Shown: one piece after another, positions 33,401 through 42,400 of the stretch
Position numbering within the stretch: position 1 is the stretch's first letter
How the letters are laid out: each line of letters opens with the position of its first letter
Source of the DNA: a bacterium
GTDB taxonomy: Bacteria; Krumholzibacteriota; Krumholzibacteriia; G020349025
Reading direction: 5' to 3'
Assembly: GCA_031362565.1 (NCBI GenBank)
Contig: JANLSU010000106.1
Location: forward strand, 32,001-96,000
Length of the DNA stretch: 64,000 nucleotides
Made by a program: the position numbers

Positions 33401-36400
33401 GACCGACGTACGGACCAAACTCGAGGCACACTACAAGGACATGCTCGACCTCGAATTCACCGTCGAGCGCGGCCGCCTCTGGATGTTGCAGACGCGGAGC
33501 GGCAAGCGGACGGGAGTCGCGGCCATCAAGATCGCCACCGATCTCGTCCGCAGCAAGACCCTCGACGAGCGCCAGGCGCTCTTGCGCGTCGATCCGGATG
33601 TGCACCTCGATCAGCTGTTGCATCCCATGATCGACAAGCGCGCCAAAGTGGAACCGCTTGCCAAGGGTCTGAATGCGTCGCCGGGGGCGGCATCGGGTGG
33701 CGCGGTGTTCACTGCCGAGGCGGCCGTCGCGGCGGCGAAAGCCGGCAAAAAAGTCGTGCTCGTACGCACCGAAACCAGCCCCGAAGACATCGAGGGCATG
33801 GCGGCCGCCAAAGCGATTCTGACCGCCCGGGGCGGGCGCACGTCGCACGCGGCGGTGGTGGCGCGCGGCATGGGCAAGGTGTGCGTCGCCGGCTGTGGCG
33901 CGATGCACGTCGACACGGCGGCGCGCACCGCGACCTTCGATACCAAGAAGGGCCCGGTCACGGTGCGGGAATTCGATCCGCTCACCGTCGACGGCACGAA
34001 CGGTTACGTCTATTTCGGTGTTGTCCCGACCGTGGATCCGGAATTGAGCAGCGACTACGAACTCTTCATGGGTTGGGCCGACAAGCACCGCACGCTCGGC
34101 GTCCGAACGAATGCCGACACGCCGCACGACGCGACCGCGGCCCGCAAGTTCGGCGCCGAGGGCATCGGGCTGTGCCGCACCGAACACATGTTCTTCGGCG
34201 AGGATCGCTTGCCTTGGGTGCGCAAGATGATCTTGGCGACGAACGAAGTCGAGCGGCGGGCCGCACTCGAGCGCCTGAAACCGATGCAGCGCGAGGATTT
34301 CGTCGGCATTTTCACCGCGATGAGCGGCTTGCCGGTGACCATCCGGCTGCTCGATCCGCCGCTGCACGAATTCGTGCCGCACACCGAAAAGGAAGCCGCC
34401 GAACTGGCGCGCGAGATCGGCATGCAGCCGGCCGAGGTCTGGCGGCGGTGCCAAGCGCTCGCCGAATCGAATCCGATGTTGGGGCACCGCGGTTGCCGCC
34501 TTGGGATCACCTATCCCGAGATCTATGAAATGCAGGCCATGGCCATCTTCGAAGCCGCGGTCGAAGTCAAGAAACGCGGCTCGAAACCGGTGCCGGAGAT
34601 CATGTTGCCGCTCATCGGCACGGTGGAGGAGTACCGGCGCCTGAAAACGCTCGTCTTGCAAGCCGCCGACCACGTGCTCGGCGCCGATCGCGATTCGATT
34701 CCGTTCCTCATCGGCACGATGATCGAGGTGCCGCGCGCCTGCGTCGTGGCGGATCGCATTGCCGAGGAAGCACAGTTCTTCAGCTTTGGCACCAACGACC
34801 TGACCCAGCTGACCTTCGGCTACAGCCGCGACGATGCCGGTACGTTCTTGCCGGCATACATCGAGCAGGGAGTTCTGCCACGCGATCCGTTCCAGAGTCT
34901 GGACGTCGAGGGCGTGGGCGCCCTCATTCAGATGGGTACCGAGCGCGGGCGGGCGACGACCGCGGATCTCAAGGTCGGGATTTGCGGCGAGCACGGTGGC
35001 GATCCAACCTCCGTCGGGTTCTGTCACAAGGTGGGTATGAATTACGTGAGCTGTTCACCGTACCGAGTTCCAGTGGCGCGACTTGCGGCGGCACAAGCGG
35101 CGGTGCGTGGGGCGTGACCCGGCGACCGCCATTCGATCTGCAAGGCGAGCTGCGCAGCTTTCCGGCGCCGCTTGTTTTTCAAATGCTGGCGCTCGGGGGT
35201 CTCGACGGGCGCCTGACTCTGCGTGGCCCGAACGCGACATTCGACGCTTATTTTCAACGCGGCAAGTTGGTCTTCGCACGCGGCCCCGGACAAACGGCGA
35301 CCGTCGGCGAGGAACTCGTGGCGCAGGGCCTCGTCGGACCCGAGCCGGTCGAGGAAGCGGCACGCGAGCGCTTGCGGCGGCGCACCGGACCGCGGATCGG
35401 CACCATCTTGGTGGATCGCGGCCTCATTCAGCGCCCGGATCTGGAGCGGGTCATTCGCGCCCGGATCAAGGATGCAATCTATGCCGTCGTCGACTGGCGC
35501 GACGGTAAATTCACTTTCGAGTCCGGCGCCGAGCCGCGCGACGAGGACATCTTGCTCGATGTGGGACTCGAGTCGCTGCTCTTGGAATGCATGGCGCGGC
35601 TCGACGATGCGAAACGCGGCGCGGCGCCGGACGAGGGTCATGCCTGAGGACCCGTGGCGCGTCTATGCCGGCGTTGTGGTCGCGTTCCTTGGGTTTCTGG
35701 CGCCGTGCGTTCAGGCACAGTCTGCCGCCGATCTCACGCCACGTCTTCACATCGATGGCCGGACGCACGACTACCGCACCGTCGAAGCCTGCTTCCGCAA
35801 CGCCGCCGTGTGCGCCCAACTCGTGCCGCGGCCGGTGTGCGGCCCGGACGAGGAACGCGACGACGATTCGCGCTCGAACCGGTTCCAGGATGTGCGGCAG
35901 ATCTACGTCACCTGGGATGCACACGCGCTCTATGTGGCGGTCGATGCGACGATCGAGAACGCGGCACTGATCGTTCTCTTGGATGTGCGGCCCGGCGGGT
36001 TGACGGGGCTCGGCAATTTGCCGGCGTGGCGCCACGCGGTGCGTTGCACGGAAGTCCTGCGCCCCGACCTCTTCCTGGCGGTCGGGGATCGTGGCCGGGA
36101 AGTCGAAGCCTGGCGCGCGCGCGGCGATGCCGCGATCGAACGCATCGCGAGCGCCGATTTCACGGCGCGCGCCACCTTCGATGGCGACGCGGCCGATCGC
36201 AGCCTCGAAGCGGCACTGCCGTGGACCCTGTTGTTCCCCGAAACCGCAACCGCCGTCGACACCGAGCCCGGCGCGCCGGCCGAACCGATCTTCGTGCTGC
36301 CGCCCGAATCGAGCCGCGCCGGCCTGCGCATCGCGGCGCTCGTCGTCGGCACGAGCGATGGCTTCGGGGCGCGCGACGTAGCACCCGATCCGCTCGGTGG

Positions 36401-39400: not shown

Positions 39401-42400
39401 ATGCATCACGCTGGCGGCGAGCCGATCCAACGCGATCCGTTTCGCCGCGCCGGGCAGGCGCGCGACTGGTTCCGCATCGGGTGCGCGGCCGGGTTCGTCC
39501 TTGGGTTGCAGGGTGCGGCGGCGTTTGCCCAACCGGCGAGCGACGCGGGTGTCGTGCGCTTCACGTACCCGGACACGACGGCCAAGGCGGTGTTCTTGGC
39601 CGGGGATTTCAACGGCTGGAGCCCGAATGCGACGCCGCTCGATCGCGAGGGCCCGGCGTGGGTGACGCGCGTTTTTCTGGACCCGGGAACCTACGAATAC
39701 AAGTTCCAGGTCGACGGCGTTTGGACGGTGGATGCCGCCAATCCGGAGACGACCGCGAAAGGCAACTCGGTCGTGCGAGTCGGCAAGGAGGGGAGCGTCG
39801 AGCCACCGCGTTCGCCGGTCGCGGAGGCGGCGACGGCGGCAACCGCGGCCGGACCGGGCTCGCTGTTGTGGGGCGTACGCTATCTCGGTTTCGCGACCGC
39901 GGGCCGCGATCGCACCCTCGACCGTTACGATCTCAGCCCGGTGGTGCACGACATCGACCTGCGTCTCGATGCGCGGATGACGCCTGATGCCACTGGATGG
40001 TTCCTCGGCCATTTCGACAATCGCGACGGCAGCGGTCCCGACAACGCGGCGTTGCGGTACGAGCGCGGCATGGTGGCATGGACGCCGGCGCCATGGGCAC
40101 TGCGCCTTTTCGATCACACGGCCGCGAGCGTCTTTGATGATCCGGCGGCGCTGGTCGGCCGGGTCGGGCGCTATGCGGATGACTTCGGCTACGGGCGCCG
40201 CGGGGTGGATTTGCGCCGGCGAGTCCTCGGTGCGCCGCTCGAGTTCGTGTACGCCGACGACGCCGAGCCAGGGGAAAATCGCGCCCCGCAGACGGCGCTT
40301 CCCGATTTGCATGGTCCGGATGCGCTCGGGCTGGCGGGTCAAAAAGTGCAGCGGTATGTGACTTCGCAAAGCGATCGGGGTTCGGACGCGGTTGGTTTCC
40401 GGGCCCGCATCGGCACGGATCGCCGCGGCCTCGGAGTGTCGTTGCGCGGCAATCGCGGCCGCAATGCGGGCCGCTTAGCCGACGTGCAGGTGGCGCGGAC
40501 GGCCGGCGATACGCTCATCGGTACCGGCCGCGAACTCACGACCACCGAGACCTCGTCCGCGTGGGGCCTCGATGTGCGGTCGCGCTGGGGCAAGTTGCGT
40601 TTCGCGGCCGAGTTCTTGGAGGGTGTCTTACGGGCCCGCGCCCAGCGCGTCGCGCCGGTCGTGCGCTTGCGAGCCGCGCCCGGCGCGACCGCGACCGAAC
40701 GATTCTTGGGGACCTCGGATGCGAGCGCCGACGGTTTCGATTTGGACCATAGCCGGCGCGTCATTGTCCGCGCCGGGGGGCCGCGCGCCACCCACATCGT
40801 CGGCACCGAAACCTGGAGCGCCCGGCCGGGAACCGGCGGCCTCACGGGGCCACGCTTGGCTTACGAATACGAAGAGCACAATTTCACCGCGCTCAGGACC
40901 GGCGCACCGTTTCTCTTGCGCCGGAATTCGCTGCAAGGCGCCGTCGATCTGCATGCCGCCGGGACCGTCCTGCGCCTCGAGGCCGAGCAGAATTGGTTCC
41001 GCTCGCCCGCCGGGTCCGAGTGGTCGACACAGTCGTGGTTTCGAAGCGGCAACTTTTGGCTCGACGAAGATGTCGTCGGCCTCGAACGGCTGACCCTGCT
41101 GGGAACTCCACAAGCTGCCATCGCGCGCCTGCACGCCGGCCGCATGTTGTGGCCGCGCCGCGAATTGCAGGGCGAGTTGCATGCGACGTGGAGCGCGCCG
41201 GGATTCGGCCACGCGCCGCGCGCCGTCGAGAACATTCTGCGCTTTTCGCTGCCGGTCCGCGGTCCGGTGTCGCTTCGCACCCACTCGCGGCTCGCGGTGT
41301 ATCGCCAACTCGAGCCGCTCGACGCGGCCGGTATTACCGCGCTCGGGGCCGGGCCGCGCATCGAAGCGGGCACCGCCGACACCCACGGGTTCGCGGTCCG
41401 GCGTTCGTATCAGGCGTTTGGGGCGCATTTTGTCGAGTTGGTTTGTGCGCTGAGCGCGCGCTCCGATATCGCGCTCGGTTTCGGCGTCGATCCCATCGTG
41501 GTCTACGAAGTGACGAACGAATACGCGCCGATCGGTTACGACGAGTTCCTCTTCGCACACGGTGCGAGCCCCACGGAGGCCCGGATCGATCCCGCCGGGC
41601 TCGGGAAGCGCATCGCCGCGGCGGAGGGTGCGCTCGAACGCGAGCGGCGCATCGGGATCGAAGCCCGGCTGCGCTTTTGAACCGGGAGCCAACCACGTCT
41701 GTACGCGGGAGCGTCAAAGTGTCGATCGGAGTTTTGATGCGGGGTGCTGAACCGGATCCACCGCGGCGTCGCCGTCGGCGCGCCGGGCGGCGCTCGGGCG
41801 CGGTGCTGCTCCTGATCGGCGGTCTCGGACTCGCGTGCCAGCCGCCACCGCGTTCGCAGTCATCGCCGGAACGAACCGCGAATGGCTTCGTGTTCCGTTA
41901 CCGGGCGCCTGCGGCACGCGTCGTTCAACTCGCCGGCAGCTGGGACGGCAATACCTTTCTACGCGGCAGCGAGTGGACGCGCGACACGCGTGTCGGTCAG
42001 ATGCAGGATCCGGATCACGATGGCGTGTGGGAAGCGTGGGTGCCGCTCGGACCGGGACGCTACGAATATGTGTTCTTGGTGGATGGCACGTTCTGGGAAG
42101 CCGATCCCACGAATCCGCAGCGTGTACCGGATGGCCAGGGTGGCACGCGGTCGCTTCTCGTCGTGCCGTAGAGGGCGGCCACAACACGTCTTTCCCGGGG
42201 CTCGGAAGGCTGGTACACTGCCCGCATGGCAACTCGATCCCGCGTCGCGGTTCTTCGCACGACGCCCAAAACGATCCTGACCGACATCGACAAGCTCGCG
42301 GACCTCGCTGGGGTGCGCACGGCGCTCGCGCCTGCATCCACGACGATTCTCAAGGACAACATCTCGTGGCATTTCCCGTTCCCCGGCGCCAACACCACTC

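Follow-up and report, generated by a model that had tools for sequence, protein, structure and literature searches.

Two paralogous outer-membrane barrels and CBM48 modules in Krumholzibacteriota: a candidate outer-membrane step of alpha-glucan use

In the protein g03995, encoded by a Krumholzibacteriota genome, a glycogen-binding CBM48 module is joined to a large outer-membrane beta-barrel. The survey's finding was taken to point to alpha-glucan binding at the outer membrane, with ligand and purpose left open as no exported amylase had been found in the genome; none was found in the present analysis either. What, then, might such a protein be for? SusCD is the usual frame for polysaccharide uptake in the FCB group, and many Krumholzibacteriota encode exported and periplasmic amylases despite the near-absence of SusD (PF07980 in 2 of 208 phylum genomes; absent from G000) and the absence of LamB (PF02264 in 0 of 208, with a positive E. 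coli control). The cassette described below is a candidate for the missing step.

The g03992-g03996 cassette and its two barrels

The five ORFs g03992 to g03996 lie on the plus strand of the 64-kb window (the whole stretch of DNA analysed) and overlap or abut. The operon that had been proposed, with two barrels, a PorV-like protein, a T9SS-tailed protein and a CBM48 lipoprotein, is real: an ORF was obtained for each gene. Promoter and terminator scans gave counts at chance level for this operon, and no RNA holder is listed for it. The features, with positions in the window, are as follows:

32415..35647, plus strand: ppdk and DUF4388, the latter with an MshEN-like c-di-GMP motif; these upstream neighbours mark out the amylase-free loci
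35640..36941, plus strand: g03992, predicted surface protein with signal peptide, DOMON/Glucodextran_C-like putative glucan-binding domain and FlgD-type, T9SS-like C-terminal tail
36938..37849, plus strand: g03993, PorV/PorQ-like small barrel
37836..39401, plus strand: g03994 (barrel A), outer-membrane barrel of about 24 predicted strands lacking plug and CBM; paralogue of barrel B
39401..41680, plus strand: g03995 (barrel B), 759 aa, with signal peptide, CBM48 and a barrel of about 22 predicted strands lacking a plug; ends in RF
39548..39784, plus strand: CBM48 of g03995, with W73, K101, W108 and N122 corresponding to AMPK beta1 W100, K126, W133 and N150
about 41737..42171, plus strand: g03996, a lipoprotein with CBM48, whose start may lie at 41677, 41716 or 41737 and whose lipobox Cys is near 41836
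43704..55689, plus strand: giant protein of up to 3354 aa with Ig repeats and an FlgD tail, and its PorV+TPR partner, downstream of the cassette

Similar giant Ig-repeat proteins are found downstream of many ppdk-type loci.

g03992 is a candidate type A cargo of the T9SS. Its tail is FlgD/PorU-like: FlgD_ig was detected in 12 of 17 family members, and the family profile matches the PorU C-terminal domain (6za2, residues 1048-1154, E 2.5e-5). TIGR04183 was unmatched, and SprA_N was found in the genome. In a g03992 homologue the N-domain is similar to clusters of Glucodextran_C (0.91) and CBM9 (0.90), and structural alignment matches it to clusters that bear GH57 (TM 0.66-0.67); long type II versions of g03992 carry Glucodextran_C. 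The neighbouring g03993 matches NF033709 PorV_fam with E 5e-9 (36.2 bits, under the cut-off of 90), and its family profile matches PorV (6h3i, E 0.012) in the N-terminal part only. It has a PorV-type N-terminal motif and follows the T9SS-tailed gene; it is likely the anchor of g03992. Finally, g03996 combines a CBM48 match with a lipobox-type LGLAC; a family-specific insert follows its first Trp, and the binding Lys is replaced by Val in this copy.

The fusion reported for g03995 was upheld by a Pfam match of residues 53-125 to AMPK1_CBM (PF16561, E 2e-11, 44.4 bits, cut-off 26.8) and by an AF2 model (pLDDT 80.6, pTM 0.72) in which the CBM precedes a barrel read as 22 strands. The remainder of the protein had no Pfam match. 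In the model, about 25 residues join the CBM48 (residues 50-128) to strand 1. No Plug domain was matched, the CBM48 standing at the N-terminus instead. No Pfam match was obtained for g03994, whose 489-residue model (pLDDT 77.9, pTM 0.73) is barrel from end to end, read as 24 strands, with a GWF C-terminus. Both strand counts, and the lack of a plug, come from models built on alignments of 21-29 sequences.

Kinship of the two barrels was weak with 21-row alignments (HHalign 5%, P 0.007) and clear with 57-row alignments (97.6%, E 4.5e-12, 421 columns), controls giving 0.5% or less. On sequence grounds, barrels A and B are paralogues. Prediction of an A-B complex with WOR-3 homologues and 57-row alignments gave a score of 0.01 and a mark of 0.32, a result that speaks neither for nor against pairing. 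P0059, in which barrel A, the CBM and barrel B form one chain, was not counted as evidence: it is a probable frameshift, because it is a lone sequence in a cluster of one, lacks the last strand of barrel A and has a signal-like stretch inside. Neither barrel profile matched a PDB chain by sequence, and no close structural relative was listed for either barrel in the fold searches, which says nothing in favour of a new fold. For DUF6029 barrels as possible relatives of A or B, language-model features scored 0.94, but HHalign against a single DUF6029 sequence gave 0.2%. A search of this genome for an HhH-barrel relative gave one HhH match, a 200-aa frame.

As for the ligand, W73, K101 and W108 of g03995 align with W100, K126 and W133 of AMPK beta1, and N122 was assigned to N150 by position; the four AMPK residues are sugar contacts according to PMC4032982. 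The W/K/W set is retained in all five barrel CBMs of this genome's family. Judged from these residues, the predicted glucan-binding site of g03995 is intact. Barrel topology would place this CBM48 in the periplasm or the lumen, not at the cell surface.

A second protein, g03143 (C97:46281-47783), had been grouped with g03995. It is indeed a CBM48-Omp85 fusion that, from its domain matches, lacks POTRA domains: CBM48 is matched at residues 42-125 and Omp85 at 249-453 (PF01103, 44.5 bits, cut-off 24), no POTRA is matched, and about 25 residues separate the CBM from the start of the barrel. Its motifs VRGH (loop 6) and FYDAG are close to the Omp85 motifs (L/M)RG(W/Y) and FxDxG (PMC11358297). The nearest known parallels are Omp85 subfamilies whose N-terminus is not a POTRA domain (WD40, metallo, noNterm). 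Exchange of N-terminal domains is known in Omp85 (PMC4104836). In g03143, however, the N-domain is a CBM48, and the word 'carbohydrate' is absent from the main text of both papers. The grouping with the g03995 cassette had to be abandoned: the barrel is unrelated (HHalign 0.3-0.5%), the locus is a different one (response-regulator/DUF4390), and the second tryptophan of the CBM is lost in 6/6 same-family copies. The tie of g03143 to glucan is weak.

Distribution and two kinds of locus

One doubt about the cassette was that matches across the class might rest on the CBM. This was not borne out, as a profile of the barrel only reaches 140 of 208 phylum genomes; it matches 253 clusters at 50% identity. 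Among the 150 matches listed, all 91 barrel matches of at least 600 aa have a CBM48. The gene order (T9SS-tailed protein, PorV-like barrel, barrel A, CBM48-barrel B, CBM48 lipoprotein) is retained in Krumholzibacteriota, Eisenbacteria, Cloacimonadota and Zixibacteria, and a reduced form occurs in WOR-3.

Glucan enzymes or sugar-ABC genes were found within about 10 kb of the cassette in 34 of 70 loci: 26 with GH13, GH57 or a debranching enzyme, 5 with a binding protein and permeases, and 3 weak cases. The neighbours in amylase-type loci include GH13 proteins with a signal peptide and several CBM48 modules, GH57, debranching enzymes and sugar ABC transporters. Some of the locus GH13s have neopullulanase/cyclomaltodextrinase-type domains, and X25 domains occur near cassette loci. 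No TonB-dependent receptor was found in amylase-type loci; in the five genomes tested such receptors lie elsewhere. Two matches to the receptor query, in loci L083 and L090, were discarded, being carboxypeptidase-regulatory-domain proteins. The W/K/W residues are retained in 38/38 barrel CBMs and 32/32 lipoprotein CBMs of these loci.

Barrel A and the locus GH13 tend to occur together, with the proviso that kin are not independent and linked genes travel together: of the 91 genomes of family f7, 45 have both, 42 have neither and 4 have one without the other, and the two sets are identical in f2 (6/12) and f3 (6/10). Families f1, f8 and f9 show another pattern, with barrel A in 5/6, 18/23 and 10/13 members and GH13 in 0/6, 0/23 and 0/13. 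In f5, f6, f8 and f9 most members have retained the cassette, as judged by the barrel-only profile.

In 20 of the 70 loci, g03992-g03996 included, the cassette follows ppdk-DUF4388, and none of these has glucan catabolic genes. Their barrel CBM keeps the Lys in 15/20 and the second Trp in 14/20, and the scored lipoprotein CBM keeps the Lys in 1/19. At least three genomes have both kinds of locus, which suggests different jobs.

Possible roles of the cassette

The presence of the cassette in starch loci answers the question of the ligand for the family. Of the initial claim of alpha-glucan binding at the outer membrane, the part that concerns the g03995 cassette is well supported by conserved binding residues and by the starch context of those 34 loci; for g03143 the tie to glucan is weak. 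We consider it probable that amylase-linked loci import maltodextrins or other alpha-glucans, and we lean, with somewhat less assurance, towards assigning to the cassette the outer-membrane step in the use of starch/glycogen by candidate phyla of the FCB group that lack LamB and SusCD. The T9SS-tailed protein, anchored at the surface via the PorV-like barrel, would gather glucan; malto- or cyclodextrins would diffuse through barrel A, barrel B or both, with no involvement of TonB. CBM48 modules at the periplasmic mouth might then trap dextrins, possibly gating the pore, and hand them to a periplasmic GH13 and an ABC binding protein, thereby sustaining inward flow. A bolder and tentative proposal, which we hold as somewhat short of an even bet, is that a single machine is made up of barrels A and B together with the CBM48 lipoprotein and the surface protein anchored by PorV, and that it represents, in addition to porins and SusCD, another class of bacterial outer-membrane importer for alpha-glucan. 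Such a machine would be built on paired, paralogous, plug-less barrels of 22 and 24 strands, with periplasmic CBM48 modules as ligand-gated plugs and ratchets, would work without TonB, and would be ancestral across several uncultured FCB phyla.

The purpose of g03992-g03996 is less certain because the locus is of the ppdk-linked type and the genome has no exported amylase that could be found. Nor did this genome yield a match to the GH13 of the loci, or any GH31 or GH65, and its one clear sugar ABC system adjoins a PF10091 enzyme. The most likely interpretation is that the same machine was left at the ppdk locus, where it either scavenges dextrins that others have set free or has changed its ligand. 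That it acts in import in this particular genome is nearly as probable as the opposite.

Other interpretations have to be weighed against import. A rather unlikely one is that the ppdk-linked type has another envelope job, either exporting or holding self-made alpha-glucan or serving as an adhesion platform with the downstream giant T9SS proteins, with import carried out by the amylase-linked paralogues only. Its fixed place after ppdk-DUF4388 without catabolic genes is compatible with such a job, as are the retention of this type in most f5, f6, f8 and f9 members, the coexistence of two types within one genome, the altered CBM residues, the giant Ig-repeat proteins downstream of many of these loci, and the occurrence in this genome of cytoplasmic glycogen-type enzymes with no import route found. 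However, neither a glucan synthase nor an inner-membrane exporter was seen in ppdk-type loci, and nearly every one examined retains one CBM48 with two Trp and the Lys. Besides, a quick tree joins barrel B of this genome's family to Eisenbacteria copies linked to amylases (SH-aLRT 94), and on 30 of the 67 rows (LG+G4) there is weak rejection of a single clade for copies of the ppdk type (p-AU 0.022).

An improbable option is that the barrels, instead of being sugar channels, put T9SS amylases and glucan-binding proteins on display as a scaffold or an accessory platform for secretion, the CBM48 being an Ig-like structural or plug domain. PorV-like and T9SS-tailed genes are found within the cassette, SprA is present, and usher pores are the best fold matches of barrel A (PapC: Z 16.3, rmsd 6.0, 359 aligned); yet WOR-3-group loci without a PorV-like gene still have the lipoprotein and both barrels, A and the CBM48-bearing B. 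Sugar-contact residues are invariant alongside amylases, and a purely structural domain would need none; the phylum would also be left without a known porin or SusCD for dextrins. Derivation of barrel B from a TonB-dependent receptor, as a TonB-energised transporter in which the CBM48 replaced the plug, seems highly improbable. TonB receptors, not LptD as had been stated alongside them, are its top fold matches, and the alignment extends over whole receptor barrels (Z 14.7-14.9, rmsd 4-7), with about 22 strands in barrel B; the resemblance is generic, though (TM 0.2-0.36, Z about 15, rmsd 4-7). By sequence, neither Pfam nor the PDB gave a match to TonB receptors: PF00593 matched 0/21 barrel sequences, and a search of this genome gave none on contig C123. 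Moreover, the paralogue, barrel A, has about 24 strands, and tonB and exbBD were not noted among the locus proteins scanned.

The cassette could serve as a marker of starch/glycogen use for uncultured phyla of sediment and sludge, and it brings with it two barrel families without a solved relative. The amylase-free type, retained in whole families, raises the question of an alpha-glucan role in the envelope.

Comparison with known systems

The logic of a polysaccharide utilisation locus is already known; what would be new are the transporter families and their architecture. LamB, an 18-stranded barrel, is a passive channel that feeds MalE/MalFGK. The cassette would share the passive channel, from which a binding protein in the periplasm and an ABC transporter of MalK type are fed. 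It differs in its larger predicted barrels, to one of which the presumably periplasmic binder is fused; PF02264 itself was not found in the 208 genomes.

The Sus system of Bacteroides comprises the TonB-dependent transporter SusC with its lid SusD, and SusE/F, SusG and SusA. The logic would be shared: glucan binders at the surface, amylases that are secreted, a barrel in the outer membrane that has a lipoprotein as partner, a neopullulanase-type GH13 in the periplasm, and X25 domains close by. SusCD is presented in 10.64898/2026.09.16.752182 as a maltooligosaccharide transporter with a plug; in contrast, the cassette has no SusD, no plug and no TonB receptor in its loci. Instead it has two paralogous barrels and a CBM48 fused on what is probably the periplasmic side, its surface binder is T9SS-tailed and lies beside a PorV-like gene, and inner-membrane uptake would depend on an ABC transporter.

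CymA of Klebsiella oxytoca mediates passive uptake of large cyclic glucans and has a constricting N-terminal segment, as portrayed in PMC11186346 and PMC8049027. Passive uptake of cyclic glucans may be common to both systems, and the locus GH13s are partly of the neopullulanase/cyclomaltodextrinase type; in the cassette, however, the N-terminal element is a folded CBM48, there are two barrels, and their profiles match no PDB chain. With fimbrial ushers barrel A would share a 24-strand barrel, whereas the internal plug and the periplasmic N- and C-domains of ushers are missing from its 489-residue model and Pfam matches, and chaperone or pilin genes were not found among the scanned neighbour proteins of barrel loci. 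A possibly analogous architecture is that of CBM9 fused to DUF5916 barrels.

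Architecture and distribution of the cassette

Five ORFs that overlap or nearly abut occur on the + strand of the window (C123:32001-96000) in this 5.4-Mb genome, for which a named homologue points to Krumholzibacteriia. The arrangement bears out the operon-like arrangement proposed for g03992-g03996 in the survey's finding:

35640-42171, + strand: five-gene cassette comprising g03992 (T9SS-tailed), g03993 (PorV-like), g03994 (barrel A), g03995 (CBM48-barrel B) and g03996 (CBM48 lipoprotein)
39401-41680, + strand: g03995, 759 aa, in which CBM48 (residues 50-128) follows a signal-like N-terminus and Phe is the last residue

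The description of g03995 as a CBM48 module joined to a large barrel also stands, as judged from the domain match at residues 50-128 and from the AF2 model (29 sequences; pLDDT 80.6, pTM 0.72), whose secondary-structure string was read as 22 membrane strands. The remaining 610 residues have no match in Pfam or NCBIfam. Whole TonB-receptor barrels align with residues 153-759 (Z about 15, rmsd 4-7, identity at most 10%), and neither the sequence scan nor the model contains a plug domain. As modeled, the likeness to TonB receptors is that of barrels in general. The model of g03994 is a barrel over its full length, read as 24 strands. Usher pores match its fold best (for PapC, Z 16.3 and rmsd 6.0 over 359 aligned residues), and alignments to TonB receptors mostly end near residue 444 of 489.

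When profiles of barrels A and B were compared (57 sequences each), they matched at 97.6% (E 4.5e-12, 421 columns); the controls, namely the PorV-like family, the Omp85 family to which g03143 belongs and a single DUF6029 sequence, stayed at 0.2-0.5%. No barrel was found among PDB sequences searched with the barrel profiles, and a Pfam scan of 21 barrel B sequences returned a single hit (E 0.048). On sequence grounds, A and B are paralogues without known relatives. A barrel-only profile matched 253 clusters among 1.84 billion representatives. Among the 150 matches listed, all 91 barrel relatives of at least 600 aa carry CBM48, in two or three copies in a few cases. Two barrel B relatives, P0135 (922 aa; a distant member) and P0172 (729 aa), have three and two modules, respectively.

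Matches to the barrel B profile (E 1e-3) were detected in 140 of the 208 phylum genomes, and barrel A (E 1e-60) in 123. Seventy loci were surveyed: the window, 20 picked from a first homologue search, another 20 drawn from the barrel B profile search of phylum genomes, and 29 of the 80 given by a third search, from which 3 duplicates were dropped and 48 loci left out as mainly CBM matches. Detection succeeded in 69 loci for barrel B, in 67 for barrel A and in 59 for the PorV-like gene, several misses being contig ends. Judged by record titles, Krumholzibacteriota, Eisenbacteria, Cloacimonadota and Zixibacteria share the order T9SS-tailed gene, PorV-like gene, barrel A, CBM48-barrel B, CBM48 lipoprotein. 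WOR-3-group loci (n=5) are reduced to A, B and lipoproteins; the T9SS-tailed gene is missing from five loci of families f4-f6 with a ppdk context, and barrel A from one Cloacimonadota locus. Hence, A, B and the lipoprotein are considered the minimal core.

The g03992 tail matches FlgD as well as the C-terminal domain of PorU, and SprA is found in this genome. The N-domain of g03992 resembles Glucodextran_C and CBM9 modules; in many loci its counterpart reaches 1750-2100 aa, with a clear Glucodextran_C domain. At L113:1-1578, a PorV-like domain is joined to both TSP3 repeats and an OmpA domain.

The cassette is a real, widespread and apparently undescribed outer-membrane module. Judged from titles and abstract openings, no paper listed by full-text searches that took in few subscription journals seems to describe it or CBM48-barrel fusions; supplements of genome surveys could list such proteins.

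Two genomic contexts

Type II loci (34/70) have an amylase or sugar-ABC context: GH13, GH57 or amylo-alpha-1,6-glucosidase lies within about 10 kb in 26, a sugar-binding protein with both permeases is found in 5, and a single weak match is the sole basis for 3. Among the neighbouring products are GH13 enzymes that carry a signal peptide and 2-5 CBM48 modules, CBM20 and X25 proteins, a GH57/CBM53 protein with a T9SS tail, MalK-type ATPases and LacI regulators. Genomic evidence for alpha-glucan uptake is strong in about half of the cassette loci. Type II loci contain 218 called proteins of at least 300 aa; no TonB receptor was found among the 20 without query match that were scanned against Pfam (14 + 6). 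In the five genomes searched, TonB receptors are present but away from the cassette. LamB occurs in 0 of 208 phylum genomes and SusD in 2, with working positive controls.

In family f7 (91 genomes), barrel A and the GH13 enzyme of type II loci are both present in 45 genomes and both absent from 42; 3 have the barrel only and 1 the GH13 only. In f2 and f3, the two genome sets are identical. Since the genomes are kin rather than independent samples, and the genes lie in linkage, this co-occurrence shows a module travelling whole, not causation.

Other observations concern individual type II loci. A conserved protein of roughly 820 aa, with a T9SS tail but no catalytic Pfam match, recurs across phyla (L036:3520-5991, L072:14673-17093, L080:1281-3797) and is a candidate for a new enzyme or binding protein of glucan. 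Some genomes harbor two such cassettes (e.g., L063 and L064 in G167), and G069 has three barrel A matches. A multiheme cytochrome cluster adjoins one cassette (L042:12745-18650); an unannotated 538-aa protein therein ends in Phe and is possibly an MtrB-like barrel.

In type I loci (20/70, including that of the window), the cassette lies 3' of ppdk and DUF4388 without a glucan enzyme; the gene for a giant Ig-repeat protein often comes next. No locus of the 70 shows both signatures, 16 were assigned to neither type, and both types occur together, one locus of each, in at least three genomes. In a quick tree, barrel B of the window's family clusters with type II copies from Eisenbacteria (SH-aLRT 94), and a test on 30 of 67 rows, in which long branches were flagged, weakly rejects a single type I clade (p-AU 0.022).

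As in the survey's finding, no exported amylase was found in this genome: the GH13 and GH57 genes recovered have no signal peptide visible by eye. The type II locus GH13 has no match, GH31 and GH65 were not found, and MFS_2 gave nothing above cut-off. The one clear sugar ABC system adjoins a protein of PF10091, named putative glucoamylase in Pfam, a family that we take to be beta-1,2-glucanases. Therefore, no downstream route for imported dextrin is evident here.

Around the window's cassette, the DUF4388 protein (35114-35647) overlaps the first cassette gene and has an MshE-type c-di-GMP-binding motif below cut-off (27.9 bits vs 38); a c-di-GMP link of ppdk-type cassettes is possible. Many type I loci outside the window's family have a CDP-alcohol phosphatidyltransferase gene between those for ppdk and DUF4388 (L043:14403-15131, L045:11095-11973). 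Positions 43704-55689 encode an Ig-repeat protein with an FlgD tail (up to 3354 aa) and then a fusion of a PorV-family barrel with TPR repeats (87.7 bits vs cut-off 90), a second cargo and PorV pair. Further downstream (55686-60812), a SpoIIE/HATPase/STAS multidomain protein, a ParA-like ATPase and a STAS protein are clustered; STAS, vWA and lamin-tail genes recur beside the cassette in this family. Downstream of the cassette lies a DUF362 gene, which in one relative contains an intein bearing a LAGLIDADG endonuclease (L032:5686-8388; 900 aa vs 373 in the window).

CBM48 sites and the separate g03143 protein

Residues W73, K101 and W108 of g03995 align with W100, K126 and W133 of AMPK beta1, and N122 sits at the position of N150; all four AMPK residues are given as critical contacts (PMC4032982). 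In type II loci, W/K/W is kept in 38/38 barrel and 32/32 lipoprotein CBMs. Type I barrel CBMs keep K in 15/20 and the second W in 14/20; of the lipoproteins scored, 1/19 retains K, and that one is a second lipoprotein. In the window's family the barrel site is intact in 5/5, and g03996 has lost the binding lysine; other type I families have an additional second lipoprotein, mostly with W, K and W. Elsewhere in this genome, C-terminal CBM48 modules are found on a ParA/MinD-like ATPase (C79:19854-20900, minus strand) and on a long, probably exported protein with no assigned family (C75:69154-71724, minus strand).

The protein g03143 (C97:46281-47783) is, as proposed, CBM48 on an Omp85 barrel: both matches exceed cut-off and the domain scan found no POTRA. 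Of the 49 proteins retrieved by a barrel-only search, 46 carry a CBM48-type domain. Grouping it with the cassette was rejected: orthologues occur in 28/30 fetched loci, almost always flanked by an NtrX-like regulator and DUF4390. The CBM scores in 27 of them, and the second tryptophan is lost in 6/6 copies of this genome's family and the lysine in 20/21 outside it. Hence, g03143 is separate and lacks a glucan context. The proposal of alpha-glucan binding at the outer membrane is well supported for the cassette family, given its kept binding residues and starch loci, and weak for g03143. Omp85 subfamilies without POTRA are already described (PMC4104836, PMC11358297), and the CBM48 N-domain adds a new variant to this known kind; the word "carbohydrate" does not occur in the main text of either paper.

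A tentative mechanism and its relation to known systems

The two termini of an even-stranded outer-membrane barrel lie on its periplasmic side, so the CBM48 of barrel B would be periplasmic or folded into a lumen. A surface protein would gather glucan, and dextrins would enter by diffusion through the large barrels, which lack a plug. CBM48 modules would trap the dextrins, and perhaps gate them, while a periplasmic GH13 and an ABC binding protein would draw them off. Transport, gating, TonB independence and complex formation of the cassette proteins are what we infer. Such a mechanism would resemble LamB-MalE and CymA in energetics and Sus in layout; the cassette is, however, a member of neither group.
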